This document shows, in pieces, positions 1,863-33,493 of a DNA stretch of 64,000 bases. Position 1 is the stretch's first letter; every line of letters starts with the position of its first letter. Source of the stretch: Eledone cirrhosa (taxonomy: Eukaryota); assembly GCA_964016885.1 (NCBI GenBank), contig OZ024743.1, positions 178,188,001 to 178,252,000 of the forward strand, in the 5' to 3' direction. A model generated the notes under the pieces. The model worked only from the letters and a program-made list of their open reading frames with translations, made no database searches and was not told the DNA's origin. A program made the position numbers and the translations under genes.

Positions 1863-1980
1863 TGCATATTAACAGCTTATGCATATTAACGGCTGAGCAG
1901 CCTAATTTCAATTCCAGTACTGCCAATACTGGAATTGAACTATCAAGACAGTTGAGGTATGTCATACATCAATTCATGTA

Positions 1981-5617: not shown

Positions 5618-5618
<1 letters not shown>
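2691..5618 (+). mobile_element. Penelope-like retroelement (RT + GIY-YIG), 5'-truncated pseudogene
   Basis: TDKSG motif lies just upstream of ORF 3054, with a frameshift near 3000. ORF motifs: LYGLRKDHK, RPV, SMDVVSL, GAAIG, RYVDD, LPVLD, a Cys-rich linker and NVVY...YRGETARSIGERIDQH. After a premature TAA (4923-4925) the frame continues ...RQIREASEI...PRLNRKNEW to TAA 5139-5141. Confidence 0.92.
5386..5427 (+). ncRNA. Minimal type I hammerhead ribozyme motif in the 3' region of the Penelope-like element (mirror 33684-33725, minus)
   Basis: ACCA-CTGACGA-T-GTTGCA-gatg-TGCAAC-GAAA-GATT-TA-TGAT: conserved core, perfect 6-bp stem II, near-palindromic short stem III, one mismatch in stem I. Confidence 0.7.

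Positions 5619-5711
<93 letters not shown>
5619..5711. repeat. (TA)n microsatellite (about half as long in the mirror copy, ~33441-33492)
   Basis: Read directly. Confidence 0.95.
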
Positions 5712-5712
<1 letters not shown>

Positions 5713-5941
5713 CCCATTCAGTTTATTTGATACTTTAATATATCTAAAACGATAGTTTGCTATCGTCAACTCTAGAAAGAAAAATTACTTATTTTTACCT
5801 GTTGATAGGTAAAACTAAATAAATTCATGCACCATCTCACTACTACAGCCACTGTTTCTGTCACTGGATAGAATGAATAAAATCAATAGCAATATTTCTC
5901 TGTATCCACATAGATTTATAACGGTTGTCGTGGTTGTCGTC

Positions 5942-8636: not shown

Positions 8637-8652
8637 TAACTATATCTATATA

Positions 8653-9390
8653 CTAGCAGAATGGCCTGGCGTTGCTCGGGATTCTAATAATAGATTGGCA
8701 TGTTTATCCCTCCTTTCTGAAACGGTACAGAGAAGTACTGGATACCTCGGCCTGGGGATGGTGTCTACATTTTGTGCTTATGAAAAACATTTGTCGTAAA
8801 TTACCAGGGGTTTAACTTAATTGGGTGCCTGAGAGTAAAATGTAAGGAATAAACTCGTCAGTGATGCATATGATTTCCGAACCGTTGACTATGTAATCGC
8901 TGGCCTTGTTTGTTTATATTTTGTTTTTGTGTATGCAAAAATACCTGTACACGAATATATATATTAAAATAAGAGATTAAAGTTTAATCAAAGAATCGCT
9001 GCTTTCACCCTTAACGGCACCTTCTGAAACTAAAAAAAAATCAATCTGTGAACGCAGAAGTAAATATTTCTAAAAAACCTTACACACTATAGATATATAT
9101 ATACACACACACACTATATATATACATATACACACACACACACACATACAGAGATAGTGTCATAAAGTCGTAATGCAAACAGCCAGACATACAGACAGAT
9201 TATAGAGAGATCGCTAAACGGCGCCTAATGCGGTCCCCAGGGCATTGAAAATTTGGAATATTATTTGCTCAAAACACTCACATGACCATAAGTATTACAT
9301 GTGTAAAGTTTGAAAACAATCGGTTTGGTGGTTCTCGAGTTTTAGGGAGTCAGACAGACAGTCAGACATTCTCTGTTTTAGATATATAGA
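8653..9390 (-). mobile_element. Complete non-autonomous Helitron-like element, 738 bp
   Basis: 5' end A|TC. 3' end CCCGAGCAACGCCAGG (imperfect subterminal hairpin)-CCATTCTG-CTAG|T. Inserted between A and T with no TSD. Confidence 0.8.
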
Positions 9391-9446
9391 TAATATTGTG
9401 TGTGTGTGTTTAAGCGGAATTTTAGTAATAGGTATATGTATATATA

Positions 9447-9575
9447 TATATTATAAAGAGTCAGGACGCCGACAGCTGAGCTCTTGCCGTTTCAACAGCT
9501 GGTTCCAGTCTGCCTGGAACTAGCTGTTGAAACGGCAAGAGCTCAGCCATCGGGGTCCCAACTCTTTATAATATA
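9447..9575. repeat. ~130-bp fold-back palindrome, MITE-like (mirror ~27781-27909)
   Basis: Inner stem GCTGAGCTCTTGCCGTTTCAACAGCTGGTTCCAG-tctgc-CTGGAACTAGCTGTTGAAACGGCAAGAGCTCAGC, with outer pair TATATTATAAAGAGT / ACTCTTTATAATATA. Confidence 0.85.
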
Positions 9576-10257
9576 ACCATACTCTACTACCCCAAGTATC
9601 GAGTACTCTGTTGAGTAATGTCAAACCAGTTTCAAACTGAGTCCATCCTGATTTATATATATATACTATAATTGTTTCAACACACTGACGCGCATGTGTG
9701 TATGTAGATTGTACCCACAAGTGTAGTGAATGTTAGATTATCATCACCCAGTCTTTCATCAGTCACATAAACACATAGATGCTAATGAGCAAGCCCAATC
9801 TACCATTTATTTCTGGGATAAATAACATCAGTTTAATAACACCTCCAAAATTGTTTTCGCATACATTTTTGATAATGAATGGAAATTTTCGCAGTTTTAG
9901 ACTATGATTAAGATGATGAAATTTTAAAGAAAAATGTTTTTGTCATTAGCAGATTCATATCTAATTTATATAGGATGAAATTAGAGAAGCCTTTTCTCAG
10001 ACAATCTCATATATTGATGTATTAACATCATAAAAAGGTGGCGAAATGACAGAGTTGAGTTGTTTGAACGTCAGATAGAAGGCTTTGTGGTATTCATTCC
10101 GACTCTGTTTGCGTTCAAATTCGGTCGAGCTCAACTTTGTGCCTTTCATCATTTTGAGGTTGATAAAAAAAGTATAACTCTAATAATGGAGTCAATTCTT
10201 CCTCTTTATCTCTTTCTAACTCTCAATCTCTCTGGAAGAAATCTTCTGTACACATAT

Positions 10258-10500
10258 CCAGGGCCTAATTTAAGGCAGAGGAAATTGCACCAAGAGTCTT
10301 ATAGTGGGGGCCCCCACAAACGACAGCCGTAGCAATTTATTTGAGCCCTCAGATGGGCCTTTTAGTTTTAGGATGGTTAGAATTTTTTTTATTTAATATC
10401 TGTATGTATAACTTTTCAATTACTTGCGCCTAGCTAATTTTGATATGTAAATTGGGGGGTTTGCTGTGTATTCTAATTTTTTGTGTATAAGGGTCCCTAC
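10258..10500 (+). mobile_element. Degenerate DNA-transposon/MITE fragment with a CAGGGCC-type end (hAT-like); relative at ~50900-51137 in opposite orientation
   Basis: Shared GTAGCAATT.ATTTG.GCCCTCAG.TGGGC.TTTTAGTTTT.GGATGGTTAGAATTTTT block. Confidence 0.5.
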
Positions 10501-11187
10501 AAGTCACTTGGGATAAAAAAAAATCAGGTAAATGTGTTGTCATTATTAGTAAAAACTTGGAAAGGTTACTATCCAAGTAAAGTCATTGTCAAATATGGAT
10601 ATAGAGAATAGGAATAGGATGGACAAGTTCAGGGAGCTAATAATAAAGGAATTTTCTTTCCTGGAATAGTAGTAGATTGTATCATCATCACCATTTAGCG
10701 TCCATTTTTTCATGCTTGCATGGGTTAGACAGGTTGTCCACGCCGGGAAGAAAGTCTAGCCACAGATGGCCATGTCACACCTTGCTCTGACGAGGACTAT
10801 ATATATATATATATATATAATTTGCTCCGGACGTAGCACCCGTGTCTGAAAGAACCCGCAGAAGTAGAATCAGCCAGATCCATACAAGGACCATGACTCG
10901 AGCTACATGCCGGCGAAACATTTGTAACACAAAATAAACTAAGTCCAGATGCATCACTGATTTTTCGTTTCCTTTATAATATCTACACTCTACTCTGATG
11001 AATATCGAGTGCTAATTTTGGCATACCGCCTATGGAAGCACCATAGCTACCACTATACACAACTATATATATATATACTCAGAAGAGTGACACAGTTGAA
11101 GTCATGTGGAAGCCATTTCTATATTAAACATGATGTTTACACTCTACTAATGTATTAAGTACCTTACTAACTGTGTGTATATTTATA

Positions 11188-12234
11188 TTCTGGTGCAATA
11201 AGTAGCAGCAAGTGCCCACAGAATACTAACTCATTCCATTGCACAGATGGTTCTATAGAAATAGTGGACAGCTTCCGTTACCTGGGTGATAAAATCAGCA
11301 GTGGGGGAGGGTGCTCTGAAAGTACAGTAGCTAGGGTCAGAACGGGATGGAAAAAGTTCAGAGAGCTTATACCACTATTGGCCGCTAAAGGATTCTCTCT
11401 AAAAATGAAAGGCAGGCTGTATGATGCCTGCATACGAACAGCAATGTTACATGGCAGTGAGACCTGGGCATTGTGTGCAGAGGATATACGCAGATTGGAG
11501 AGAAACGAAGCTTGCATGCTCCGCTGGATGTGTAATAGTAACATACGTGAACGGCAAAGCATAAACGTACTAAGGGAGAAATTAGAAATAAGAGGGATCA
11601 GAGGTTGTTTACTCGAAAGAAGACTACGTTGGTATGGTCACGTGATGCGGATAAAAGACGACAGCTGTATAAAAAAGTGCAGGGCAATAAAAATAGACGG
11701 TAGCCACGGAGTAGGCAGACCCAGAAAAACCTGGGACGACTTGATAAATTCCGACCTCACACACTTACACCTCTCCAAGACAATGTCACTGGACCGAGAG
11801 CTTTGCCGCTACACAGTAATAGAGAAGACCCGCCTTACCTAAGTACAAAGTGAAACCTACTACAGTCAGTAGGCACCTCTAACAAAATACACCCCGTCCC
11901 ACTACCCCCACCCCATCCACACCACCCCTTCATTGTAAAGTTATGTTGGTGTCACAACATCCAGGCCGAAACAAATGAGGTCGTGTAGGTGTCACGACAA
12001 AAAACACACAGTCCACGCTGTAATGTGGCCTTGTAGGCAACACGGTAAAACCTCCCAGTCCCACACTGTAAATGTGGTTGGTGTTAGGAAGGGCATCTAG
12101 CCGTAGAAAACCCGCCAGACAGTCCTATGCGAGCAAGACAACCACTCTTGCCTCAAGTGGGAAAACCCCCGTCCAAACCCATGCAAGCGTGGAATATGGA
12201 CGTTAAACGATGATGATGATGATGATGATGATGA
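11188..12234 (+). mobile_element. RTE LINE 3' fragment with (GAT)n tail
   Basis: ORF 11264..11842 matches the C-terminus of the other RTE copies. Shared 3' UTR. Confidence 0.93.
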
Positions 12235-12381
12235 TATATAATAATAATAATGAGTATAACTGAAGTTGCAGCTGCGAGTAGCAGGTTCACAATTGATTTT
12301 TGGAGACTCTCACAAAGCACTCAATGAGAGAGTAATCAATGAATTAATCCTCAGAGTAATCAACATAAGTTAGGTAATAAT

Positions 12382-12500
12382 TGTTTCTACTTTAGGCACA
12401 AGGCCAGCAATTACTCAGTACATTACTGGTACTTTATTTTATCAACCCCATAAGGATGAAAGGCAAAGTTAACCTCGGCGGGATTTGAACTCAGACTGTA
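12382..12500 (-). mobile_element. 5'-truncated tRNA-type SINE with 15-bp TSD (mirror ~24856-24974)
   Basis: Minus strand has a B-box-like GAGTTCAAATCC followed by CGCCGAGGTTAACTTTGCCTTTCATCC...GTAGAAACA. AAGTTAGGTAATAAT flanks both ends (12367-12381, 12501-12515). Confidence 0.85.
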
Positions 12501-12737
12501 AAGTTAGGTAATAATGACACAATGAAATATGTGGCCAAAGGTGTGTTGCCACCTTAATACTACAACAAAAAATACAGACAGGTTAAAGACGAACCTGGAC
12601 CTGATTGATAGATATTAGATATTAATCAATAAATATCTTCAATAGGCTTCTAGAAATCTGGAAGCTACACTCCAAGTTGTGTAATGCAAGTAAGTAATGT
12701 ATCCTAAGATGGAACGAGAATATATATATATATATAT

Positions 12738-13645
12738 ATAAATGAAAGGTATAGAAATTGTTTTAGCGAGAAGTTAACAGTATTCCATAACATATATGCG
12801 ACTATGTCGTCAAGATGGGAAAAATAGTTAACGTAAGATGTAGGAAAAATAGTTCAAACTCATCTCAAAAGAGCATCAGGATACAAATTTATCCACAGAA
12901 TTTAGTGAAATCAAGGGAAAAATCAATAGACCCTTAACTCATGATAAAATAAAGTTTAAAATACTTATCCTTCAATTTGGAAAAATATCAAATGCTCTGT
13001 ATAGTCTTAAAGACTATTTCATGAAAACTTTCAGTGGAGATGGTCACGGTTGGATTTCAATCGTCAGCAGAGCTCAACAGATAACCAGGGCTCCCACAGA
13101 ATTATAAGCCAAAAAGGGAATTCTAAAACTGGCTAGTTCACCATCATGCGTGATTATGAAAAACGCACATGAGGAAAAACACGGCTAGTGACGTCAGGAT
13201 GAAAATGAATGTTTGTTTACAAGAAACAACAGTCAAATACATTCCGAAAAAAAACTCTAAAAAAGGAGTTCAGCAAACAGCAATATTATCGCAGTTTTTA
13301 TTAAAAAAACCGGGATTAGTCACAGATAATTTAAGCACTGAAGGAAAAGAATCCGAGTATAAATATAAATGAAAGGTATAGAAATTGTTTTAGCAAGAAG
13401 CTAATAGTATTCCATAATATATATGCGACTATGTCGTCAAGATGGGGAAAATAGTTAACGTAAGATGTAGGAAAAATAATTCAAACTCATCTCAAGGGAG
13501 AATCAGGATATAAATTCATCCACAGAATTTAGTGAAATCCAGGGAAAAAATCAATAGACCCTTAACTCATGATAAAATAAAGTTTAAAATACTTATCCTT
13601 CAATTTGGAAAAACATCAAATGCTCTGTATAGTCTTAAAGACTAT
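12738..13645. repeat. ~280-bp direct repeat (12738-13017 / 13364-13645), partial head-to-tail duplication; possible Penelope pseudo-LTR remnant (mirror ~23711-24618)
   Basis: AAATGAAAGGTATAGAAATTG...GTCTTAAAGACTA occurs twice. The minus strand has a degenerate hammerhead-like TTGACGA-CATA...TATG-GAAT. Confidence 0.6.
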
Positions 13646-14570
13646 ATATATATAGTTATGTTCTTAATTGTAATACACTTTAGTATTGTATCTGAATAAT
13701 ATTTTGAATAAATAATGTTCTGCAAAATATAGATTTTAGTTTGTATAAACGATATTTGAGAGAAAGAATGTGTTTGTGTGTGCTGGTGGTAGTGAGGGTA
13801 CATGTATGTAGTGGGGAAGAGTCTCTATATGTGGGGAAATATGTGGTGGGAGAGAATATGTGTGGTGGGAAAGAGTGAAAGAAGAAAAAACCCCAGTACA
13901 GGACTGGTACGTCATATATTATTATAAACCATGAATAGATGAAAGGCAAAATTATTTTAGCAGGAATTGAGCTGCGACTGCAGATATCCTGAATGAATAC
14001 TAGTAGGCAACTTTCATGATCAAACAATTCTCTAAATACGTTGTCTTGGGAGTTATGTTAAAAGTTCAATTGTTAAAAATGAGTGTTTGAAAAAAAAAGA
14101 AAGATTTTTTAAACATATAAATACTAAAACATGACAGACATTTGTGTCTGTCTGTCATAGCTTATGAAACATTGATTTTTTTTTCAACACCATCTTATCA
14201 ATTTTAATTAATTGAGTAATTTTTTTTTTTTGTGTGGTGTGTTTTGATTTGTTTAGATTGGTTGAATGTTATTGTTGGGTAGCATTGTCATCATCATTAT
14301 CATCATCATATGTCCATTTTCCACTCTAGCATGGGTTAGAGAAGTTGTCTTTTCGGGACCAATGGTTTGATTTAAAAAATATATCTGAAGTCTTAGGGAA
14401 AGAATCGAAATTTAAGAAAAACATAAAACAATTAAGCTAATCATTTGGTCCAACAATTCCCTAGAAAATTAATAGAAACCCAAATAGTTAGAATCAGTAG
14501 TTGTACTAAATTTATAGCTTACTGTATTATTCATTCATACATATATATGCACACACACACACACACACAT

Positions 14571-16651
14571 ATGTGGGAGAAAGACAGTCTCCCCCATATC
14601 GACCCAATAGAGGGACCAGCAGTGTTAGTCGAGGGGAGTATAATAAGTAAGGCAATCAAGATATGAAGACGGGTAAGGCGGCTGGGCCTTCGGAAATAGT
14701 TGCTGAGATGCTGAAGGCATCTGGCACGGTGGGACACACCATGGTCACCCGCATAGTTAACCAAGTCGTACAGAATGGGGTTGTTCCGAAGGACTGGCAT
14801 AGCAGCATCATCGTTAACTGTTATAAGAGTAAAGGAGACGCCCTAGATAAGAGTAACTATAGAGGCATTAAATTAATCGACCAGGTCATGAAGGTCACGG
14901 AAAAAGTAATAGCGCAACTAATCAGAGAGAGAATTGACCTAGATGAAATGCAGTTCGGGTTTGTGTCAGGCAAAAGTACCACAGACGCTCTTTTCATAGT
15001 ACGACAACTACAGGAGAAGTACCTAGCTAAAGGTAAACCCGTCTACTTAGCTTTTGTTGACTCGGAGAAAGCCTTCGACAGAGTCCCCCGCTCCATTATC
15101 TGGTGGGCTCTTAGAAAACTAGGCGTTGACGAATGGCTTGTGAGGGCTATACAAGCCATGTATAAAGAAACAGTCAGCAAGGTTAGAATTAACAACGAAT
15201 ATAGTGAAGAGTTTAGCGTAAAAGTTGGCGTTCATCAGGGCTCTGTTCTCAGCCCCCTACTATTTATTATTGCCCTTCAGGCTATAACAGAGGAGTTCAA
15301 GACCGGCTGCCCATGGGAACTCCTATACACAGACGACCTGACACTCATAGCGGAATCAATGGCCGAGCTAGAGAAGAAATTCCAAACATGGAAGCACGGC
15401 CTAGAGTCAAAAGGACTTAAAATTAACCTGGCTAAGACTAAAGTTCTAGTTTGTAGGAAAGAAAACAAGGCGGCGGTCCCTTCTGGGAAATGGTCGTGCT
15501 CGGTGTGTAGGAAAGGCGTAGGTAGAAACTCCATTTTATGTCCTAAATGCAAAGTATGGGTGCATAAAAGATGTAGTGGGATCACAGGTAAGCTAACTAA
15601 GAACATAGATTTTACATGTGGCCGGTGTTCTGGTGCAATAAGTAGCAGCAAGTGCCCACAAAATACTAGCTCTTTCAATTGCGCAGAGGGTTCTATAGAA
15701 ATAGTGGACAGCTTCCGTTACCCGGGCGATAAAATCAGCAGTGGGGGAGGGTGCTCTGAAAGTACAGTAGCTAGAGTCAGAACTGGTTGGAAAAAGTTCA
15801 GAGAGCGTATACCACTATTAGCTGCTAAAGGGTTCTCCCTAAAAATGAAAGGCAGGTTGTACGATGCCTGCATACGAACAGCAATGTTGCATGGCAGTGA
15901 GACCTGGGCATTGTGTGCAGAGGATATACGCAGACTAGAGAGGAACGAAGATTGCATGCTCCGCTGGATGTGTAACAGTAATATACGTGAACGGCAAAGC
16001 ATAAACGAACTAAGGAAAAAATTAGAGATAAGAGGGATCAGATGTTGTTTACTCGAGAGAAGGCTACGTTGGTATGGACACCTGATGCGCATGAAAGTCG
16101 ATAGCTGTATAACAAAGTGCAGGGCAATAAAGATAGACGGTAGCCACGGAATAGGCAGACCTAGAAAAACCTGGGACGAGCTGATAAACTCCGACCTCAC
16201 ACACTTACACCTCTCCAAGACAATGTCACTGGACCAAGACCTTTGGTGGTACTCAGTAACAGAGAAGACCCGCCTTGCCAGTAGGCATCTCTAACAAAAT
16301 ACACCCCGTCCCACCCCCACCACCCCATCCACACCACCCCGTTCTATGTAAAGTTATGTTGGTGCCGCGCCATCCAGGCCGAAACAAATGAGATCGTGTA
16401 GGTGTCACGACAAAAAAAACACACAGTCCACGCTGTAATGTGGCCGTGTAGGCAACACGGTAAAAACCTCCCAGACCCACACTGTAAATGTGGTTGGTGT
16501 TAGGAAGGGCATCCAACTGTAGAAAACCTGCCAGACAGTCCTATGCGAGCAAGACAATCACTCTTGCCTCAAGTGGGACTACCCGCGTCCAAACCCATGC
16601 AAGCGTGGAACACGGACGTTAAACGTTGATGATGATGATGATGATGATGAT
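14571..16651 (+). mobile_element. Young 5'-truncated RTE LINE with open 543-aa RT frame (YTDD) and PHD-like zinc finger
   Basis: ORF 14663..16294 has a full set of RT motifs. No endonuclease domain. 3' UTR and (GAT)n tail. Confidence 0.95.
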
Positions 16652-16785
16652 ATATATATATATAAGTTTATATATACAAGCACACACACATACACAAGAA
16701 GACTGTCTCTTATTCATATTCCCAGTGCTTAGCCCCAAACACTACAAGCAATAAAACCTGACACATATATATGTATATAGATACA

Positions 16786-16817
<32 letters not shown>

Positions 16818-17396
16818 CTTACACATACACACATATTTCTGGGTTCAGTCATTTATTCTAAGTAAATAAAAAGATTTCTATAAGTGACTGCTGAGCAAAG
16901 AATTTTACTTGAGGGTGGTGGAATTTGCAACAATAGCCATGACATATATATATAAAATCAGCATATAGAGAGAAGTACACAGAGATATGTCTATAATCAT
17001 AGATTTAAAACCACCAGTGTGAAGAACATATTAACTATGGAAAGAATGGTAAATACAAATCAATTAAAAAAACATACTAAAGCGTACTAACTATAACATC
17101 CATGTATATTATTATAGTTTAGAATAACTTCAACAAAATCTTAATGTTTTTATGATGTAATTAACCCCCTAAGATATAAAAAAATTATTTTCTATATATA
17201 ATCATAAAGTCCTCATGCAAGAATAAAAGATTTTTAAAAAATTATTTAAGAATTTGTTTAATCAATTATATTCATTCATCTATAACAGATTTTCCCAAAC
17301 TGCGTGATATCTCCCACTGCCAAATGGGCAATGAGCAACTGAACAGAAAATTGTGGGCATTTGGAAATGTTGGTTGATGATATAGGATTTTGTGTA

Positions 17397-17423
17397 TTAA
17401 GAAGGTATTTCAACATGTGCTAC
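17397..17423 (-). CDS. Candidate terminal coding exon B of the 6-Cys TM gene (VAHVEIPS*); inverted copy at 19930-19956
   Basis: Strong acceptor ATATTTTCTTTTCAG|GTA. Phase 0 matches exon 4. AT-rich putative 3' UTR with AATAAA near 16855. Confidence 0.35.
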   Translation of the reverse strand, partial: VAHVEIPS

Positions 17424-18274
17424 CTGAAAAGAAAATATTCAAAGGAGATATTTAAAGAAGCTGTATAAAAAAGAAAACCAGGAGGCTAAATGGGAAAAAC
17501 GAATCTGTAACAAACATTTTTGGTATATTTTTCAATATTTACTGTACAGGTGGGTAGTGGAAAATATAAAGGTGGGCAATGATGCCAAAAAGAGGTTAGG
17601 AACCCTTGATCTATAATAAGAATTTAGATAAATAATGAATTTTATAATTATTACATGTGGGAGCAATTAGATATTTTTAAAGTAAAATTTAACATTCAAC
17701 ACTGATAATAGAGGAGTAAGGTTTTAACATTTTTTTAAATGTTTACAAAGACTTAAAATTTCAAATTTCAGAAGGAAATTTTCAAACAACTCAAACCAAC
17801 TAGAGAATTAATTTATAGAGAATTTTAAAAAATGTTAATTCCCTAAATGAGAAAAAGTGCATTATGTAGGATCATCAACCATTATAGAGAAAGAAAGAAA
17901 TCTGGGCAAGAAACAATAGTTTCCTGTTAAATGATTATCATCCATTCTTTAAAAAAAAGAATAAAGTAAAAGTGAAAATAAAAATAACAAATGAAATATA
18001 AAAATATGAAAATAGTGAGTCAGAATATTGTAGACACAAGGAGTATTTTAAGAATTTTTAATTGATTAATTAATCCAATAAATGAAAGAATTAGATAATT
18101 CAAAACTATTAAATCAGATCTAATTATTTCCAGAGCTTCCATAGATTCACAGCTTTGTAAGTACTGATAGCATTAATTATAAAACACTGTAAGCAATATT
18201 CAATATTGGAATTCTGTTAGTATTAACATATTCTTCCATTGGCTAATCTAAAGTTTCAATCTGGCTCTCTGCTT

Positions 18275-18347
18275 TCTTTGAAATCAAATCCTGCCAAGGT
18301 CAACTTTGCCTTTCCTCCATTCCAGGTTGATAAAAAGAAGTATCAGT
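18275..18347 (+). mobile_element. Degenerate SINE fragment spanning the inner end of the left arm
   Basis: TCAAATCCTGCCAAGGTCAACTTTGCCTTTCCTCC...GATAAAAAGAAGTATCAG. Confidence 0.7.
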
Positions 18348-18958
18348 TTAGATCGGGAGGGGTGAGGTGTTCAATTCTTCCTCACTTCCGTTCCTTCCTT
18401 GGCTGGACGAAATCTGGTGTAATCAGATCTGTAGAGGGATGGGCACTTTAGCCCTCAAACCATCCATATCCAGCCAGAATTCTCTCACCTTTTTTCTGTT
18501 CAAACCAGCCATAACTGGCAGCTCATACTAATGTTAAGGTATTGTTTTCAAAAGAAATAAGATCAAAATCTCATAGCTTTGATATTATCTAAGATAAAGC
18601 CTTTACCATAAAAGTACAATAGTATACATAACCTAAATGCTAAAGTGCTGGTGTCCAAGAAACACTGTATGCCACTATAATGCTCCTACAACTCCAAGAG
18701 TTACAGGACCATACCATACTAAATAGGCGTTGATTTCCATCAGATACATATTGATTTATCAGCTTAACCATGTAATCCTTCCTCTTTTCTTTATATTATT
18801 GTACATTCCAAGTTTTTGAGGAATAAGGTTTTAAAAGCAGTTTTCTTTTTAAATGTATTCTTTTTTTTTATCATTCTAATTAGATCTCAGAAGTTTGGAA
18901 ACAATGGATTATGTGGTAGATTTCTGCATCTTAAAACCAAATTTTGGGTATTATTTTC

Positions 18959-19004
18959 AATATCGGTAGAGGGTCGGACGCCATGCTTTCCAGCATAGTT
19001 ACGT
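18959..19004 (+). mobile_element. 5' half of the split SINE
   Basis: TATCGGTAGAGGGTCGGACGCCATGCTTTCCAGCATAGTTACGT matches the 5' region of the SINE at 38885-39070. Preceded by ATTATTTTC. Confidence 0.8.
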
Positions 19005-19037
19005 TGAAAGGGACGTAACTATGCTGGAAAGCATGGC
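18980..19037. repeat. Perfect 25-bp-stem, 8-nt-loop hairpin at the palindrome junction
   Basis: GCCATGCTTTCCAGCATAGTTACGT-tgaaaggg-ACGTAACTATGCTGGAAAGCATGGC. Confidence 0.95.
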
Positions 19038-20534
19038 TGGAAAGCAAAGTTGACCTTGGCAGGATTTGATTTCAAAGAAAGCAGAGAGCCAGATTGAAAC
19101 TTTAGATTAGCCAATGGAAGAATATGTTAATACTAACAGAATTCCAATATTGAATATTGCTTACAGTGTTTTATAATTAATGCTATCAGTACTTACAAAG
19201 CTGTGAATCTATGGAAGCTCTGGAAATAATTAGATCTGATTTAATAGTTTTGAATTATCTAATTCTTTCATTTATTGGATTAATTAATCAATTAAAAATT
19301 CTTAAAATACTCCTTGTGTCTACAATATTCTGACTCACTATTTTCATATTTTTATATTTCATTTGTTATTTTTATTTTCATTTTTACTTTATTCTTTTTT
19401 TTAAAGAATGGATGATAATCATTTAACAGGAAACTATTGTTTCTTGCCCAGATTTCTTTCTTTCTCTATAATGGTTGATGATCCTACATAATGCACTTTT
19501 TCTCATTTAGGGAATTAACATTTTTTAAAATTCTCTATAAATTAATTCTCTAGTTGGTTTGAGTTGTTTGAAAATTTCCTTCTGAAATTTGAAATTTTAA
19601 GTCTTTGTAAACATTTAAAAAAATGTTAAAACCTTACTCCTCTATTATCAGTGTTGAATGTTAAATTTTACTTTAAAAATATCTAATTGCTCCCACATGT
19701 AATAATTATAAAATTCATTATTTATCTAAATTCTTATTATAGATCAAGGGTTCCTAACCTCTTTTTGGCATCATTGCCCACCTTTATATTTTCCACTACC
19801 CACCTGTACAGTAAATATTGAAAAATATACCAAAAATGTTTGTTACAGATTCGTTTTTCCCATTTAGCCTCCTGGTTTTCTTTTTTATACAGCTTCTTTA
19901 AATATCTCCTTTGAATATTTTCTTTTCAGGTAGCACATGTTGAAATACCTTCTTAATACACAAAATCCTATATCATCAACCAACATTTCCAAATGCCCAC
20001 AATTTTCTGTTCAGTTGCTCATTGCCCATTTGGCAGTGGGAGATATCACCCAGTTTGGGAAAATCTGTTATAGATGAATGAATATAATTGATTAAACAAA
20101 TTCTTAAATAATTTTTTAAAAATCTTTTATTCTTGCATGAGGACTTTATGATTATATATAGAAAATAATTTTTTTATATCTTAGGGGGTTAATTACATCA
20201 TAAAAACATTAAGATTTTGTTGAAGTTATTCTAAACTATAATAATATACATGGATGTTATAGTTAGTACGCTTTAGTATGTTTTTTTAATTGATTTGTAT
20301 TTACCATTCTTTCCATAGTTAATATGTTCTTCACACTGGTGGTTTTAAATCTATGATTATAGACATATCTCTGTGTACTTCTCTCTATATGCTGATTTTA
20401 TATATATATGTCATGGCTATTGTTGCAAATTCCACCACCCTCAAGTAAAATTCTTTGCTCAGCAGTCACTTATAGAAATCTTTTTATTTACTTAGAATAA
20501 ATGACTGAACCCAGAAATATGTGTGTATGTGTAA

Positions 20535-20571
<37 letters not shown>

Positions 20572-20705
20572 TGTATCTATATACATATATATGTGTCAGG
20601 TTTTATTGCTTGTAGTGTTTGGGGCTAAGCACTGGGAATATGAATAAGAGACAGTCTTCTTGTGTATGTGTGTGTGCTTGTATATATAAACTTATATATA
20701 TATAT

Positions 20706-22786
20706 ATCATCATCATCATCATCATCATCAACGTTTAACGTCCGTGTTCCACGCTTGCATGGGTTTGGACGCGGGTAGTCCCACTTGAGGCAAGAGTGAT
20801 TGTCTTGCTCGCATAGGACTGTCTGGCAGGTTTTCTACAGTTGGATGCCCTTCCTAACACCAACCACATTTACAGTGTGGGTCTGGGAGGTTTTTACCGT
20901 GTTGCCTACACGGCCACATTACAGCGTGGACTGTGTGTTTTTTTTGTCGTGACACCTACACGATCTCATTTGTTTCGGCCTGGATGGCGCGGCACCAACA
21001 TAACTTTACATAGAACGGGGTGGTGTGGATGGGGTGGTGGGGGTGGGACGGGGTGTATTTTGTTAGAGATGCCTACTGGCAAGGCGGGTCTTCTCTGTTA
21101 CTGAGTACCACCAAAGGTCTTGGTCCAGTGACATTGTCTTGGAGAGGTGTAAGTGTGTGAGGTCGGAGTTTATCAGCTCGTCCCAGGTTTTTCTAGGTCT
21201 GCCTATTCCGTGGCTACCGTCTATCTTTATTGCCCTGCACTTTGTTATACAGCTATCGACTTTCATGCGCATCACGTGTCCATACCAACGTAGCCTTCTC
21301 TCGAGTAAACAACATCTGATCCCTCTTATCTCTAATTTTTTCCTTAGTTCGTTTATGCTTTGCCGTTCACGTATATTACTGTTACACATCCAGCGGAGCA
21401 TGCAATCTTCGTTCCTCTCTAGTCTGCGTATATCCTCTGCACACAATGCCCAGGTCTCACTGCCATGCAACATTGCTGTTCGTATGCAGGCATCGTACAA
21501 CCTGCCTTTCATTTTTAGGGAGAACCCTTTAGCAGCTAATAGTGGTATAAGCTCTCTGAACTTTTTCCAACCAGTTCTGACTCTAGCTACTGTACTTTCA
21601 GAGCACCCTCCCCCACTGCTGATTTTATCGCCCGGGTAACGGAAGCTGTCCACTATTTCTATAGAACCCTCTGCGCAATTGAAAGAGCTAGTATTTTGTG
21701 GGCACTTGCTGCTACTTATTGCACCAGAACACCGGCCACATGTAAAATCTATGTTCTTAGTTAGCTTACCTGTGATCCCACTACATCTTTTATGCACCCA
21801 TACTTTGCATTTAGGACATAAAATGGAGTTTCTACCTACGCTTTTCCTACACACCGAGCACGACCATTTCCCAGAAGGGACCGCCGCCTTGTTTTCTTTC
21901 CTACAAACTAGAACTTTAGTCTTAGCCAGGTTAATTTTAAGTCCTTTTGACTCTAGGCCGTGCTTCCATGTTTGGAATTTCTTCTCTAGCTCGGCCATTG
22001 ATTCCGCTATGAGTGTCAGGTCGTCTGTGTATAGGAGTTCCCATGGGCAGCCGGTCTTGAACTCCTCTCTTATAGCCTGAAGGGCAATAATAAATAGTAG
22101 GGGGCTGAGAACAGAGCCCTGATGAACGCCAACTTTTACGCTAAACTCTTCACTATATTCGTTGTTAATTCTAACCTTGCTGACTGTTTCTTTATACATG
22201 GCTTGTATAGCCCTCACAAGCCATTCGTCAACGCCTAGTTTTCTAAGAGCCCACCAGATAATGGAGCGGGGGACTCTGTCGAAGGCTTTCTCCAAGTCAA
22301 CAAAAGCTAAGTAGACGGGTTTACCTTTAGCTAGGTACTTCTCCTGTAGTTGTCGTACTATGAAAAGAGCGTCTGTGGTACTTTTGCCTGACACAAACCC
22401 GAACTGCATTTCATCTAGGTCAATTCTCTCTCTGATTAGTTGCGCTATTACTTTTTCCGTGACCTTCATGACCTGGTCGATTAATTTAATGCCTCTATAG
22501 TTACTCTTATCTAGGGCGTCTCCTTTACCCTTATAACAGTTAACGATGATGCTGCTATGCCAGTCCTTCGGAACAACCCCATTCTGTACGACTTGGTTAA
22601 CTATGCGGGTGACCATGGTATGTCCCACCGTGCCAGATGCCTTCAGCATCTCAGCAACTATTTCCGAAGGCCCAGCCGCCTTACCCGTCTTCATATCTTG
22701 ATTGCCTTACTTATTATACTCCCCTCGACTAACACTGCTGGTCCCTCTATTGGGTCGATATGGGGGAGACTGTCTTTCTCCCACAT
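20706..22786 (-). mobile_element. Mirror RTE LINE
   Basis: ORF 21063..22694 differs from the left copy at 6 amino acids. Confidence 0.95.
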
Positions 22787-25121
22787 ATGTGTGTGTGTGT
22801 GTGTGTGCATATATATGTATGAATGAATAATACAGTAAGCTATAAATTTAGTACAACTACTGATTCTAACTATTTGGGTTTCTATTAATTTTCTAGGGAA
22901 TTGTTGGACCAAATGATTAGCTTAATTGTTTTATGTTTTTCTTAAATTTCGATTCTTTCCCTAAGACTTCAGATATATTTTTTAAATCAAACCATTGGTC
23001 CCGAAAAGACAACTTCTCTAACCCATGCTAGAGTGGAAAATGGACATATGATGATGATAATGATGATGACAATGCTACCCAACAATAACATTCAACCAAT
23101 CTAAACAAATCAAAACACACCACACAAAAAAAAAAATTACTCAATTAATTAAAATTGATAAGATGGTGTTGAAAAAAAAATCAATGTTTCATAAGCTATG
23201 ACAGACAGACACAAATGTCTGTCATGTTTTAGTATTTATATGTTTAAAAAATCTTTCTTTTTTTTTCAAACACTCATTTTTAACAATTGAACTTTTAACA
23301 TAACTCCCAAGACAACGTATTTAGAGAATTGTTTGATCATGAAAGTTGCCTACTAGTATTCATTCAGGATATCTGCAGTCGCAGCTCAATTCCTGCTAAA
23401 ATAATTTTGCCTTTCATCTATTCATGGTTTATAATAATATATGACGTACCAGTCCTGTACTGGGGTTTTTTCTTCTTTCACTCTTTCCCACCACACATAT
23501 TCTCTCCCACCACATATTTCCCCACATATAGAGACTCTTCCCCACTACATACATGTACCCTCACTACCACCAGCACACACAAACACATTCTTTCTCTCAA
23601 ATATCGTTTATACAAACTAAAATCTATATTTTGCAGAACATTATTTATTCAAAATATTATTCAGATACAATACTAAAGTGTATTACAATTAAGAACATAA
23701 CTATATATATATAGTCTTTAAGACTATACAGAGCATTTGATGTTTTTCCAAATTGAAGGATAAGTATTTTAAACTTTATTTTATCATGAGTTAAGGGTCT
23801 ATTGATTTTTTCCCTGGATTTCACTAAATTCTGTGGATGAATTTATATCCTGATTCTCCCTTGAGATGAGTTTGAATTATTTTTCCTACATCTTACGTTA
23901 ACTATTTTCCCCATCTTGACGACATAGTCGCATATATGTTATGGAATACTATTAGCTTCTTGCTAAAACAATTTCTATACCTTTCATTTATATTTATACT
24001 CGGATTCTTTTCCTTCAGTGCTTAAATTATCTGTGACTAATCCCGGTTTTTTTAATAAAAACTGCGATAATATTGCTGTTTGCTGAACTCCTTTTTTAGA
24101 GTTTTTTTTCGGAATGTATTTGACTGTTGTTTCTTGTAAACAAACATTCATTTTCATCCTGACGTCACTAGCCGTGTTTTTCCTCATGTGCGTTTTTCAT
24201 AATCACGCATGATGGTGAACTAGCCAGTTTTAGAATTCCCTTTTTGGCTTATAATTCTGTGGGAGCCCTGGTTATCTGTTGAGCTCTGCTGACGATTGAA
24301 ATCCAACCGTGACCATCTCCACTGAAAGTTTTCATGAAATAGTCTTTAAGACTATACAGAGCATTTGATATTTTTCCAAATTGAAGGATAAGTATTTTAA
24401 ACTTTATTTTATCATGAGTTAAGGGTCTATTGATTTTTCCCTTGATTTCACTAAATTCTGTGGATAAATTTGTATCCTGATGCTCTTTTGAGATGAGTTT
24501 GAACTATTTTTCCTACATCTTACGTTAACTATTTTTCCCATCTTGACGACATAGTCGCATATATGTTATGGAATACTGTTAACTTCTCGCTAAAACAATT
24601 TCTATACCTTTCATTTATATATATATATATATATATTCTCGTTCCATCTTAGGATACATTACTTACTTGCATTACACAACTTGGAGTGTAGCTTCCAGAT
24701 TTCTAGAAGCCTATTGAAGATATTTATTGATTAATATCTAATATCTATCAATCAGGTCCAGGTTCGTCTTTAACCTGTCTGTATTTTTTGTTGTAGTATT
24801 AAGGTGGCAACACACCTTTGGCCACATATTTCATTGTGTCATTATTACCTAACTTTACAGTCTGAGTTCAAATCCCGCCGAGGTTAACTTTGCCTTTCAT
24901 CCTTATGGGGTTGATAAAATAAAGTACCAGTAATGTACTGAGTAATTGCTGGCCTTGTGCCTAAAGTAGAAACAATTATTACCTAACTTATGTTGATTAC
25001 TCTGAGGATTAATTCATTGATTACTCTCTCATTGAGTGCTTTGTGAGAGTCTCCAAAAATCAATTGTGAACCTGCTACTCGCAGCTGCAACTTCAGTTAT
25101 ACTCATTATTATTATTATATA

Positions 25122-26168
25122 TCATCATCATCATCATCATCATCATCGTTTAACGTCCATATTCCACGCTTGCATGGGTTTGGACGGGGGTTTTCCCACT
25201 TGAGGCAAGAGTGGTTGTCTTGCTCGCATAGGACTGTCTGGCGGGTTTTCTACGGCTAGATGCCCTTCCTAACACCAACCACATTTACAGTGTGGGACTG
25301 GGAGGTTTTACCGTGTTGCCTACAAGGCCACATTACAGCGTGGACTGTGTGTTTTTTGTCGTGACACCTACACGACCTCATTTGTTTCGGCCTGGATGTT
25401 GTGACACCAACATAACTTTACAATGAAGGGGTGGTTTGGATGGGGTGGGGGTAGTGGGACGGGGTGTATTTTGTTAGAGGTGCCTACTGACTGTAGTAGG
25501 TTTCACTTTGTACTTAGGTAAGGTGGGTCTTCTCTATTACTGTGTAGCGGCAAAGCTCTCGGTCCAGTGACATTGTCTTGGAGAGGTGTAAGTGTGTGAG
25601 GTCGGAATTTATCAAGTCGTCCCAGGTTTTTCTGGGTCTGCCTACTCCGTGGCTACCGTCTATTTTTATTGCCCTGCACTTTTTTATACAGCTGTCGTCT
25701 TTTATCCGCATCACGTGACCATACCAACGTAGTCTTCTTTCGAGTAAACAACCTCTGATCCCTCTTATTTCTAATTTCTCCCTTAGTACGTTTATGCTTT
25801 GCCGTTCACGTATGTTACTATTACACATCCAGCGGAGCATGCAAGCTTCGTTTCTCTCCAATCTGCGTATATCCTCTGCACACAATGCCCAGGTCTCACT
25901 GCCATGTAACATTGCTGTTCGTATGCAGGCATCATACAGCCTGCCTTTCATTTTTAGAGAGAATCCTTTAGCGGCCAATAGTGGTATAAGCTCTCTGAAC
26001 TTTTTCCATCCCGTTCTGACCCTAGCTACTGTACTTTCAGAGCACCCTCCCCCACTGCTGATTTTATCACCCAGGTAACGGAAGCTGTCCACTATTTCTA
26101 TAGAACCATCTGTGCAATGGAATGAGTTAGTATTCTGTGGGCACTTGCTGCTACTTATTGCACCAGAA
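25122..26168 (-). mobile_element. Mirror RTE LINE 3' fragment
   Basis: ORF 25514..26092. Confidence 0.93.
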
Positions 26169-27965
26169 TATAAATATACACACAGTTAGTAAGGTACTTA
26201 ATACATTAGTAGAGTGTAAACATCATGTTTAATATAGAAATGGCTTCCACATGACTTCAACTGTGTCACTCTTCTGAGTATATATATATATAGTTGTGTA
26301 TAGTGGTAGCTATGGTGCTTCCATAGGCGGTATGCCAAAATTAGCACTCGATATTCATCAGAGTAGAGTGTAGATATTATAAAGGAAACGAAAAATCAGT
26401 GATGCATCTGGACTTAGTTTATTTTGTGTTACAAATGTTTCGCCGGCATGTAGCTCGAGTCATGGTCCTTGTATGGATCTGGCTGATTCTACTTCTGCGG
26501 GTTCTTTCAGACACGGGTGCTACGTCCGGAGCAAATTATATATATATATATATATATAGTCCTCGTCAGAGCAAGGTGTGACATGGCCATCTGTGGCTAG
26601 ACTTTCTTCCCGGCGTGGACAACCTGTCTAACCCATGCAAGCATGAAAAAATGGACGCTAAATGGTGATGATGATACAATCTACTACTATTCCAGGAAAG
26701 AAAATTCCTTTATTATTAGCTCCCTGAACTTGTCCATCCTATTCCTATTCTCTATATCCATATTTGACAATGACTTTACTTGGATAGTAACCTTTCCAAG
26801 TTTTTACTAATAATGACAACACATTTACCTGATTTTTTTTTATCCCAAGTGACTTGTAGGGACCCTTATACACAAAAAATTAGAATACACAGCAAACCCC
26901 CCAATTTACATATCAAAATTAGCTAGGCGCAAGTAATTGAAAAGTTATACATACAGATATTAAATAAAAAAAATTCTAACCATCCTAAAACTAAAAGGCC
27001 CATCTGAGGGCTCAAATAAATTGCTACGGCTGTCGTTTGTGGGGGCCCCCACTATAAGACTCTTGGTGCAATTTCCTCTGCCTTAAATTAGGCCCTGGAT
27101 ATGTGTACAGAAGATTTCTTCCAGAGAGATTGAGAGTTAGAAAGAGATAAAGAGGAAGAATTGACTCCATTATTAGAGTGATACTTTTTTTTTCAACCTC
27201 AAAATGATGAAAGGCACAAAGTTGAGCTCGACCGAATTTGAACGCAAACAGAGTCGGAATGAATACCACAAAGCCTTCTATCTGACGTTCAAACAACTCA
27301 ACTCTGTCATTTCGCCACCTTTTTATGATGTTAATACATCAATATATGAGATTGTCTGAGAAAAGGCTTCTCTAATTTCATCCTATATAAATTAGATATG
27401 AATCTGCTAATGACAAAAACATTTTTCTTTAAAATTTCATCATCTTAATCATAGTCTAAAACTGCGAAAATTTCCATTCATTATCAAAAATGTATGCGAA
27501 AACAATTTTGGAGGTGTTATTAAACTGATGTTATTTATCCCAGAAATAAATGGTAGATTGGGCTTGCTCATTAGCATCTATGTGTTTATGTGACTGATGA
27601 AAGACTGGGTGATGATAATCTAACATTCACTACACTTGTGGGTACAATCTACATACACACATGCGCGTCAGTGTGTTGAAACAATTATAGTATATATATA
27701 TAAATCAGGATGGACTCAGTTTGAAACTGGTTTGACATTACTCAACAGAGTACTCGATACTTGGGGTAGTAGAGTATGGTTATATTATAAAGAGTTGGGA
27801 CCCCGATGGCTGAGCTCTTGCCGTTTCAACAGCTAGTTCCAGGCAGACTGGAACCAGCTGTTGAAACGGCAAGAGCTCAGCTGTCGGCGTCCTGACTCTT
27901 TATAATATATATATATACATATACCTATTACTAAAATTCCGCTTAAACACACACACACAATATTA

Positions 27966-28703
27966 TCTATATATCTAAAACAGAGAATGTCTGACTGTCT
28001 GTCTGACTCCCTAAAACTCGAGAACCACCAAACCGATTGTTTTCAAACTTTACACATGTAATACTTATGGTCATGTGAGTGTTTTGAGCAAATAATATTC
28101 CAAATTTTCAATGCCCTGGGGACCGCATTAGGCGCCGTTTAGCGATCTCTCTATAATCTGTCTGTATGTCTGGCTGTTTGCATTACGACTTTATGACACT
28201 ATCTCTGTATGTGTGTGTGTGTGTGTATATGTATATATATAGTGTGTGTGTGTATATATATATCTATAGTGTGTAAGGTTTTTTAGAAATATTTACTTCT
28301 GCGTTCACAGATTGATTTTTTTTTAGTTTCAGAAGGTGCCGTTAAGGGTGAAAGCAGCGATTCTTTGATTAAACTTTAATCTCTTATTTTAATATATATA
28401 TTCGTGTACAGGTATTTTTGCATACACAAAAACAAAATATAAACAAACAAGGCCAGCGATTACATAGTCAACGGTTCGGAAATCATATGCATCACTGACG
28501 AGTTTATTCCTTACATTTTACTCTCAGGCACCCAATTAAGTTAAACCCCTGGTAATTTACGACAAATGTTTTTCATAAGCACAAAATGTAGACACCATCC
28601 CCAGGCCGAGGTATCCAGTACTTCTCTGTACCGTTTCAGAAAGGAGGGATAAACATGCCAATCTATTATTAGAATCCCGAGCAACACCAGGCCATTCTGC
28701 TAG
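27966..28703 (+). mobile_element. Mirror Helitron-like element; its 3' 180 bp are repeated at 29323-29502
   Basis: TC start at 27966, CTAG ends at 28703 and 29502 (offset 799). Confidence 0.8.
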
Positions 28704-28719
28704 TATATAGATATAGTTA

Positions 28720-31700
28720 CTAGGGAAGGATAGGAAATAACCTGGCATTGGGAATGATAAGGAATAACCTGGCCTAAGGAAGAATAAGAAATAACCTGGC
28801 ATTGGGAAGAATAAGGAATAACCTGGCATTGGGAAGGATAAGGAATAACCTGGCCTAGGGACGGATAAGAAATAACCTGGCGTTGGGAAGGATAAGGAAT
28901 AACCTGGTATTGGGAAGGATAAGGAATAACTTGACCTAGGGACGGATAATAAATAACCTGGCATTTGGGAAGGATAAGGAATAACCTGGCATTGGGAAGG
29001 ATAAGGAATAACCTGGTCTAGGGAAGGATAATGAATAACTTGAACTAGAGACGGATAAGAAATAACCTGGCATTGGGAAGGATAAGGAATAACCTGGCAT
29101 TGGGAAGCATAAGGAATAACCTGGCCTAAGGAAGGATAAGGAATAACTGGCCTAGGGAAGGATAATAAATAACCTGGCATTGGGAAGGATAAGGAATAAC
29201 CTGGTCTAGGGAAGGATAAGAAATAACCTGGCATTGGGAAGGATGAGGAATAACCTGGTCTAGGGAAGGATAAGAAATAATCTGGCGTTGGGAAGGATAA
29301 AGAATAACCTGGCCTAGGGACGTCAGGCACCCAATTAAGTTAAACCCCTGGTAATTTACGACAAATGTTTTTCATAAGCACAAAATGTAGACACCATCCC
29401 CAGGCCGAGGTATCCAGTACTTCTCTGTACCGTTTCAGAAAGGAGGGATAAACATGCCAATCTATTATTAGAATCCCGAGCAACGCCAGGCCATTCTGCT
29501 AGTATATAGATATAGTTACTAGGGAAGGATAGGAAATAACCTGGCATTGGGAATGATAAGGAATAACCTGGCCTAAGGAAGAATAAGAAATAACCTGGCA
29601 TTGGGAAGAATAAGGAATAACCTGGCATTGGGAAGGATAAGGAATAACCTGGCCTAGGGACGGATAAGAAATAACCTGGCGTTGGGAAGGATAAGGAATA
29701 ACCTGGTATTGGGAAGGATAAGGAATAACTTGACCTAGGGACGGATAATAAATAACCTGGCATTGGGAAGGATAAGGAATAACCTGGCATTGGGAAGGAT
29801 AAGGAATAACCTGGCCTAAGGAAGGATAAGAAATAACCTGGCATTGGGAAGGATAAGGAATAACCTGGTCTAGGGAAGGATAATGAATAACTTGAACTAG
29901 AGACGGATAAGAAATAACCTGGCATTGGGAAGGATAAGAAATGACCTGGCATTGGGAAGGATAAGGAATAACTGGCCTAGGGAAGGATAATAAATAACCT
30001 GGCATTGGGAAGGATAAGGAATAACCTGGTCTAGGGAAGGATAAGAAATAACCTGGCATTGGGAAGGATGAGGAATAACCTGGTCTAGGGAAGGATAAGA
30101 AATAATCTGGCGTTGGGAAGGATAAGGAATAACCTGGCCTAGGGACGGATAAGAAATAACCTGGCATTGGGAAGGATAAGAAATAACCTGGCATTGGGAA
30201 GGATAAGGAATAACCTGGCCTAGGGAAGGATAATAAATAACCTGGCATTGGGAAGGATAAGGAATAACCTGGCCTAAGGAAGTATAAGGAATATCCTGGC
30301 ATTGGGAAGTATAAGGAATAACCTGGCCTAGGGACGGGTAAGAAATAACCTGGCATTGGGAAGGATAAGGAATAACCTGGCATTGGGAAGGATAAGGAAT
30401 AACCTGGCCTAAGGGAGGATAAGGAATATCCTGGCATTGGGAAGGATAAAGAATAACCTGACCTAGGGACGGCTAAGAAATAACCTGGCATTGGGAAGAA
30501 TAAGGAATAACCTGGCATTGGGATGGATAAGGAATAACCTGGTCTAGGGACGGATAAGAAATAACCTGGCATTGGGAAGAATAAATAGTAAACTGGCATT
30601 GGGAACGATACGGAATAACCTGGCCGAAGGACGGATAAGAAATAACCTAGCAGTGAAAGGATAAGGAATAACCTGGCATTGGGAAGGATAAGGAATAACC
30701 TGGCCTAGGGAAGGATAATAAATAACCTGGCATTGAGAAGGATAAGGAATAACCTGGTATAGGGAAGGATAAGAAATAATCTGGCGTTGGGAAGGATAAG
30801 GAATAACCTGGCCTAGGGACGGATAAGAAATAACCTGGCATTGGGAAGGATAAGGAATAACCTGGCATTGGGAAGGATACGGAATAACCTGGCCGAGGGA
30901 CGGATAAGAAATAACCTATCAGTGGGAAGGATAAGGAATAACCTGGCATTGGGAAGGATAAGGAATAACCTGGCTTTGGGAAGGATAAGGAATAACCTGG
31001 CATTGGGAAGGATAAGGAATAACCTGGCCTAAGGAAGGATAAGAAATAACCTGGCATTGGGAAGGATAAGGAATAACCTGGTCTAGGGAAGGATAATGAA
31101 TAACTTGAACTAGAGACGGATAAGAAATAACCTGGCATTGGGAAGGATAAGAAATGACCTGGCATTGGGAAGGATAAGGAATAACTGGCCTAGGGAAGGA
31201 TAATAAATAACCTGGCATTGGGAAGGATAAGGAATAACCTGGTCTAGGGAAGGATAAGAAATAACCTGGCATTGGGAAGGATGAGGAATAACCTGGTCTA
31301 GGGAAGGATAAGAAATAATCTGGCGTTGGGAAGGATAAGGAATAACCTGGCCTAGGGACGGATAAGAAATAACCTGGCATTGGGAAGGATAAGGAATAAC
31401 CTGGCATTGGGAAGGATAAGGAATAACCTGGCCTAGGGAAGGATAATAAATAACCTGGCATTGGGAAGGATAATAAATAACTTGGCATTGGGAAGGATAA
31501 GGAATAACCTGGCCTAGGGACGGATAAGAAATAACCTGGCATTGGGAAGGATAAGGAATAACCTGGCCTAAGGAAGTATAAGGAATATCCTGGCATTGGG
31601 AAGTATAAGGAATAACCTGGCCTAGGGACGGGTAAGAAATAACCTGGCATTGGGAAGGATAAGGAATAACCTGGCATTGGGAAGGATAAGGAATAACCTG

Positions 31701-33211: not shown

Positions 33212-33440
33212 GACGACAACCACGACAACCGTTATAAATCTATCTGGATACAGAGAAATATTGCTATTGATTTTATTCATTCTATCCAGTGACAGAAACA
33301 GTGGCTGTAGTAGTGAGATGGTGCATGAATTTATTTAGTTTTACCTGTCAACAGGTAAAAATAAGTAATTTTTCTTTCTAGAGTTGACGATAGCAAACTA
33401 TCGTTTTAGATATATTAAAGTATCAAATAAACTGAATGGG

Positions 33441-33492
<52 letters not shown>

Positions 33493-33493
<1 letters not shown>

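Follow-up and report, generated by a model that had tools for sequence, protein, structure and literature searches.

A hairpin within a split SINE as the probable tip of a 16.5-kb inverted duplication in Eledone cirrhosa, with a candidate two-step origin

Inverted duplications usually lose their original turning point, so that FoSTeS/MMBIR and ODIRA followed by erosion are hard to separate, according to the part of the ODIRA literature that treats this question (PMC10766186). In yeast inverted amplicons, deletions of one arm that start from the inversion junction and run from a junction repeat to a distal repeat are offered as an alternative to FoSTeS in a section of PMC4689423, which also gives 17 bp as the smallest stable loop, and one-arm deletions are recorded at 3 of 92 junctions in the corresponding portion of PMC10766183. 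Short-loop hairpins are preferentially removed by Mre11-Sae2, with loops below 15 nt suppressed (PMC7467729, in part), and the stabilisation of palindromes by asymmetric deletion is covered in a section of the review PMC8701086. Three further descriptions, each taken from portions of the source, bear on single junctions: in the four-point template switch, an intra-strand switch requires point 2 to lie before point 1 (PMC7954356); loop-out SD-MMEJ is defined by a primer repeat, an insert forming a new direct repeat and a new microhomology (PMC5728401); and fold-back inserts at breaks measure 5–34 bp (PMC11724301).

The locus lies in a 64,000-nt stretch of Eledone cirrhosa DNA (the window), in which positions 18980-19004 are the exact reverse complement of 19013-19037, forming a perfect 25-bp stem around an 8-nt loop (19005-19012, TGAAAGGG; reverse complement CCCTTTCA). 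The predicted DNA fold of this hairpin has an energy of -32.6 kcal/mol (z-score -9.66; 0 of 200 shuffles equally stable), and with (TA)n arrays excluded the window holds just one other perfect stem of at least 15 bp, at 9475-9547, together with its mirror. This second hairpin (mirror at 27809-27881; 26-bp stem, 21-nt loop with imperfect self-pairing) is older than the big duplication and could be a further fold-back scar or else a small MITE.

The hairpin at 18980 forms the inner tip of an inverted repeat that pairs 1788-18307 (plus strand, 16.5 kb) with 19047-37323 (minus strand, 18.3 kb), the right arm being longer through satellite gain and a 799-nt duplication. The jump into the inverted arm skips about 670 nt, which corresponds to a single-copy spacer, U, at 18316-18979 (plus strand, 664-672 nt) that is absent from the right arm. 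The inverted arm is present in the window in two copies with a single hairpin junction, without triplication. Since an RT-coding LINE runs intact through 1788, where a minus-strand ORF of 518 aa (412-1968) crosses the arm boundary, the left arm is taken to be the original arrangement.

The first hairpin arm falls within the 5' half of a SINE (18958-19004, plus strand), which is 5'-truncated by about 14 nt, with loose ends before 18961, and a 3' half of the same family lies at the far end of the right arm (37324-37435, plus strand). The loose ends of SINE reads place 25 family nucleotides between 19004 and the CGCC at which the SINE resumes at 37324, on the same strand. A 9-nt target-site duplication, ATTATTTTC, flanks the pair on the plus strand, its left copy (18950-18958) ending at the first base of the truncated SINE and its right copy (37436-37444) beginning directly after the SINE end GAAACA. 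Two other SINE copies that were tested carry target-site duplications of 14 and 11 nt in the same register as the 9-nt ATTATTTTC, while six mismatched flank pairs share just 6-7 nt; the first 6 nt (ATTATT) are common to all three copies, leaving the specificity in 3 nt and the register, and in principle the left 9-mer might instead be what remains of a SINE head that has decayed. With about six plus-strand family copies per 64 kb, a chance 25-nt fit is well under 1% by our own arithmetic. Because of this fit and the target-site duplication in register, the two halves are very likely one SINE copy, in which case the strand left and re-entered the same element, and the hairpin would be the tip of a 16.5-kb inverted duplication set inside that copy.

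From the single split copy and the LINE intact at 1788, the ancestral order was probably flank-L-U-X-Y-(17-19 nt)-Z, which would have become flank-L-U-X followed by rc(Y) rc(X), the insert, rc(L) and Z. The SINE family is of high copy number, with an A+T tail and target-site duplications, and may be of the octopus OK/OR type; Rfam gave 0 matches, and its motif had 0 matches in papers. Copies at 12378-12500, 24850-24980, 37324-37435 and 38880-39062 share an internal deletion relative to a longer copy at 42320-42535 and end in GAAACA followed by target-site duplications beginning ATTATT. The G run of the 3' half (37354-37371), 30 nt from the exit join, is about 16 nt long against 3-4 nt in other copies.

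At the first join, an inverted 33-nt copy of the SINE follows 19004, as the original prediction from the DNA letters had proposed, and the reverse complement of the loop does resemble the normal continuation of the SINE, matching the family at 6 of 8 nt (CCCTTT), where SINE reads run on as CCCTTTACG. Switch point 1 lies at 19004, at the end of the first hairpin arm (18980-19004); the loop (19005-19012, minus strand) reads as an inverted copy of the bases that once followed 19004, which puts point 2 ahead of point 1, and the second arm (19013-19037, minus strand), an exact inverted copy of the first, would be the remnant of the palindrome tip. The loop is thus inverted relative to the intact flank, and the points are ordered 3-1-2-4. 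Because point 2 lies ahead of point 1, a switch within one strand is impossible, and an inter-strand fork switch fits; the return also lies near the departure, 25 nt on and on the same strand. The layout corresponds to that of the four-point template switch in the parts of its description that we cite (L-1, 2-3 reversed, 4-R, order 3-1-2-4, 2 ahead of 1 being inter-strand; Loytynoja and Goldman; Walker et al., PMC7954356), although the reverse tract is about 17 kb here rather than tens of bases and contains an internal skip and an insert. The SINE family carries an interrupted inverted repeat, ACGT-CCCTTT-ACG (3 nt), with ACGT found in at least 2 records. Because the observed loop has 2 nt (TG) more than this repeat predicts, the ancestral bases of this copy being lost, the microhomology of the first switch is bounded at 0-4 nt.

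The orientation of the loop bears on fold-back formation. A one-step snap-back of a strand on itself predicts a sense-oriented loop and was rejected, the observed loop having the opposite orientation. A broader route would begin with a break in the SINE, after which intra-strand fold-back or the fusion of sisters would produce a palindromic chromatid that breaks a second time at the mirror of 1788, is rescued by the distal end and loses part of one arm during repair. Human inverted duplications are described as arising by such a route, in which short inverted repeats and spacers occur together with local templated inserts (PMC3907307, in part); either arm can break after replication, which would allow the loop orientation seen here, and a blunt exit suits end joining. 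The locus likewise resembles the fold-back inverted duplications characterised in sections of Hermetz et al. (PMC3907307) and Li et al. (PMC7467729) in its single-copy spacer and local templated inserts, and its 33-nt tract falls within the 5-34 bp range of short fold-back inserts (PMC11724301, in part). It differs from them in being interstitial, without terminal deletion, and in having a loop inverted relative to the intact flank. A second break and a retained distal fragment would also be needed where such events normally end in terminal deletion or translocation, and just 17-19 nt were lost, so we regard this origin as unlikely.

At the inner join, CTGGAAAGCA occurs exactly twice, at 19024-19033 and 19037-19046, after which the sequence runs on as the complementary strand read down from 18306 (18301-18315, reverse-complemented, being GGAAAGGCAAAGTTG). 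The repetition and its link into a SINE fragment at about 18300-18315, both proposed from the letters alone, are exact, and the repeat is best described as a templated insert: the second CTGGAAAGCA (19037-19046, plus strand) appears to add 9 new nt, templated by 19024-19033 once the end had slipped back 13 nt, and supplies the microhomology for a landing at 18307. In this reconstruction the ATGGC primer end re-anneals at ATGC 13 nt back (2 nt exact, the primer GC, or 4 with a bulge), copying adds 9 nt, and the extended end then anneals to GGAAAG(G)CA on the minus strand of an older SINE core fragment (18279-18347, plus strand; last paired base 18307), the missing G in the product following the primer and not the template. 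The proposal that the inner landing used microhomology is borne out, with 8 nt and one bulge found at 2 of 17,192 upstream sites for this primer; the primer was defined after the fact, which makes the 47 of 17,192 sites (0.27%) for any of 24 primer ends the fair figure. No match for the duplicated primer lies nearer than the landing site, which ranks fourth in nearness once any primer end is admitted (18619, 18572 and 18505 being nearer). Extended homeology of the inverted stem with the landing region is unremarkable, 1,038 of 17,156 windows scoring equally; only the 3'-terminal match is rare.

The inner join thus shows the features of loop-out SD-MMEJ, having a direct repeat (19024-19033 = 19037-19046), a GC primer and the landing GGAAAG(G)CA, and parallels the loop-out SD-MMEJ or polymerase theta end joining described in portions of PMC5728401, in which a deletion with an insert forms a new nearby direct repeat that supplies the joining microhomology. 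Unlike a full account of the locus, that process explains the inner join only. A deletion of 670 nt is long for typical products of loop-out SD-MMEJ or polymerase theta. The same join, read on the minus strand, also looks like a simple deletion allele, and the inverted arm could have been copied from a homologue that already carried an older 670-nt deletion with a templated insert, the differences between the arms then being allelic, to which their symmetric substitutions would be suited. This is most improbable, since chance would have to place the end of an independent deletion no more than 33 nt from the switch point, which we estimate at about 1 in 1,000 at plausible deletion densities. 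A homeologous rearrangement between SINEs (Alu-Alu-like) was considered and rejected: the inner-landing microhomologies lie at non-homologous positions, one in the SINE head and the other in the older copy's core, making the join head-to-core, and the exit joins a LINE to the same SINE copy.

The exit join (37323/37324) reads ATCCACCAGGTCA up to the join and CGCCGAGGTTAAC after it. The original prediction held that SINE microhomology guided this step, and ATCCACCAGGTCA does resemble ATCCCGCCGAGGTTA, yet both blocks are kept in tandem and not merged, exact microhomology is 0 nt (against an intact proxy copy), and the resemblance, which is out of register with the real join, is equalled at 565 of 13,331 non-SINE arm positions (4.2%) and at 641 of 13,756 overall, so that it stands at chance level. 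A return to the same SINE copy, suggested by the 25-nt gap and the 9-nt target-site duplication, is the better reading of the exit. In the vicinity, a very high-copy repeat is found both in the spacer (18455-18645) and 500 nt past the exit (37856-38032), 84% alike and on the same strand; further on lie a 40-nt minisatellite (39093-40236) and a strongly G-skewed 33/65-nt satellite of 4.5 kb (51356-55875).

We tentatively favour an origin in two steps, which falls somewhat short of an even chance in our judgement: an inter-strand fork switch from which the strand came back to the same SINE, followed by trimming of one arm by synthesis-dependent microhomology end joining. In the switch, whose topology is observed and whose cause is conjectural, the strand would have left after 19004 and continued on the opposite template 6-8 nt ahead, the likely primer being the SINE's own ACGT-CCCTTT-ACG interrupted inverted repeat. 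The long arm need not be new synthesis, as nascent lagging strand may have been joined to leading strand in the manner of ODIRA's closed fork. The arm then ends at the mirror of 1788 and appears to rejoin the same SINE at its 3' half, without exact microhomology and with a loss of 17-19 nt. The resulting palindrome of about 17 kb with an 8-nt loop would have been unstable; the anatomy of its trimming is preserved, and its timing is conjectural. A break 25 bp from the tip, in the new arm, would have been followed by a 13-nt slip-back copying TGGAAAGCA and by annealing of the end to GGAAAG(G)CA 670 nt away, with deletion of one spacer copy, after which the arms would have diverged neutrally (0.17%). 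By our reasoning, exactly the retained tip would be left if a 25-bp cruciform were nicked at its base. The two 25-nt stems are identical, and with about 0.04 differences expected this identity does not date the trimming.

With ODIRA followed by secondary deletion of one arm, as set out in portions of the work of Brewer/Dunham (PMC4689423, PMC10766183, PMC10766186), the locus shares a short-spacer inversion junction compatible with a leading-to-lagging switch, a deletion of one arm that runs from a short junction repeat to a distal repeat, and a chromosome that is intact on both sides. The locus nevertheless stands outside ODIRA proper because there is no triplication: it is a duplication, with no second palindromic junction or third copy. 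Its loop is also 8 nt long, against a preferred repeat spacing of 40-80 bp in yeast, and its deletion join carries a templated insert.

A single replicative run of the FoSTeS/MMBIR type, which is the original prediction in corrected form, would produce the same sequence from one event: 33 nt copied, a 13-nt slip-back, a 670-nt microhomology jump, 16.5 kb of processive copying and the return to the SINE. We consider it quite possible while doubting it. The jump follows the first switch by just 33 nt, the tip has been kept and a second structural change lies on the same arm; MM-BIR synthesis is moreover short and then processive, with inter-strand switches, in the account given in part of PMC13065848. 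The locus shares with FoSTeS/MMBIR as treated there (PMC13065848) clustered breakpoints, a short templated segment and microhomology at the inner landing, but differs in having no exit microhomology and no excess mutation on the copied arm, and its origin in a single event is only putative. What survives of the predicted FoSTeS/MMBIR event is the opposite-strand switch, the templated insert and the inner microhomology, whereas guidance by the SINE at the exit does not, the resemblance there being at chance level without an exact match. One run would also require 16.5 kb of backward strand-displacing synthesis, and the inner join is equally an end-joining signature. Because a later one-arm deletion by loop-out SD-MMEJ yields an identical sequence, later erosion of a palindrome and the same synthesis run cannot be told apart from the sequence alone. 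The second non-homologous duplication and the extra satellite on the right arm speak weakly against two steps and for an error-prone copying run. Centre-directed cleavage of a palindrome would often remove the tip, and the retained tip therefore also counts against two steps.

Comparison of the arms, from which the satellite (46 events in left-arm positions 5900-8700) and unalignable ends were dropped, gave 24 substitutions in 13,827 bp, a divergence of 0.17%. Polarised against paralogous repeats within the window, 16 of the 24 could be assigned, 8 as right-derived and 8 as left-derived (8 versus 6 without the weak calls at 5806 and 17972), a split consistent with arms that diverged neutrally once the event was over, or with allelic difference. 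No excess of new mutations was found on the copied (right) arm in this 8 versus 8 comparison, which has low power. The tandem duplication of 799 nt (28524-29322), confined to the right arm, takes in about 200 nt of unique sequence and the start of the 27-nt satellite and is joined without microhomology; its join to the sequence from 29323 onward has about 2 extra nt, and its first 440 nt differ from the left arm by 1 base and 1 indel. In the 27-nt satellite itself (5942-8633 and 29519-33211), the arms differ by block duplications, the right being about 1 kb longer, and most 150-nt tiles are 98.7-100% identical between arms.

The DNA of the locus was followed in short-read contigs from two runs of one sample, possibly the source of the window (X1 and X2), and in two of three RAD-seq runs (X4 and X5), four of six runs in all. 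Three public runs of the one sample, X1 and X2 among them, contain 0.83-0.87 of the sampled words of 18321-20530. The X1 contig matches the window over 19010-19958 with 0 differences (depth 20.8), and the X2 contig matches over 19010-19959 with 1 difference (depth 25.3); both run from three loop bases through the whole second stem and the 10-nt repeat into the arm. Of the segment 19005-19043, for which a consensus error had been named as a way in which the prediction might fail, 19010-19043 is therefore real, 19005-19009 lying outside those contigs. At 20050, X2 has C>G, which is the left-arm allele, and both X1 and X2 differ from the window at 18795. Two inverted copies and their inner join are confirmed as real in the DNA of this one sample.

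Contig depth serves as a rough measure of copy number, and the background contigs are a non-random sample. On this measure, spacer contigs (18524-18986 and 18524-18982) have depths of 9.97 and 12.3 and arm contigs 20.1-27.2, a spacer-to-arm ratio of 0.48-0.49, while contigs of other loci in the same tables lie mostly at 2.7-11.2, one high-copy row (150.7/104.6) being left out. The arm is at about twice ordinary depth. An assembly artefact, in which two haplotypes, one with the deletion, were joined head to head or a read chimera folded back, is very hard to credit. The loop joint 19004/19005 is spanned by none of the 16 contig pieces listed (gap 18987-19009), beyond which 31,814 more exist, and the contigs examined do not reach the exit joint 37323/37324, which such an artefact would suit, and a heterozygous deletion would likewise give a spacer-to-arm depth of 1:2. 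A fold-back chimera, however, copies one molecule and cannot yield 24 substitutions and a deletion in one arm, two precise non-homologous joins into one SINE would be required, and the arm depth of 20-27 is about twice that of the highest unrelated single contigs (up to 11.2).

The hairpin might also have been an ordinary part of the SINE family. In each of the four runs, the loose ends behind 19004 read on into ordinary SINE (95, 79, 23,762 and 23,237 records; agreement 0.86-0.94), and ordinary SINE reads never show the hairpin, so this second way in which the prediction could have failed was set aside. In the RAD-seq runs, X4 and X5, depth is 0 at 19135-19356, and their opposite-strand joints at about 18978-19069, considered as evidence for the junction, were discarded, because they come from ordinary SINE reads compatible with the stem as well as with the arm's SINE fragment.

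Transposons and satellite were the only content found in the arm. No host gene was detected there among the 9 ORFs scanned, 3 of which match RVT_1 and 6 nothing, a scan limited to open reading frames; because no host gene was found, the biological consequence looks small. Reverse transcriptases of LINE type occur at 412-1968 (minus), 14651-16294 (plus) and 60212-61279 (plus), each with a PHD-finger-like match just after the RT domain. A 648-aa frame is duplicated and open in both arms (2979-4925, plus; 34186-36132, minus); it has no Pfam match and resembles Penelope-type RT and GIY-YIG clusters in Atlas (score 0.95). In this Penelope-like ORF, all 4 inter-arm substitutions change the amino acid.

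A non-exhaustive literature search found no published report of such an octopus locus. Every step fits a described class and one locus cannot settle the debate; its value lies in the clarity of the record. The 8-nt loop survives, an unusually well-kept original turning point, and the ancestral allele can be rebuilt to about 19 nt from the split SINE and its target-site duplication, making the points of departure and return known without an outgroup. Split high-copy SINEs could serve in this way as built-in rulers, at genome-wide scale, for loop orientations and patterns of erosion. It is conceivable, although we think it rather improbable, that the locus is a germ-line fossil of both a short-loop fork switch and one-arm erosion, and that the SINE head, with its ACGT-N6-ACG(T) repeat and TGC(C)TTTC micro-repeat, is a recurrent genome-wide seed for inverted duplications. 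If that were true, the locus would keep the two-step history that the ODIRA model proposes but calls normally hidden.
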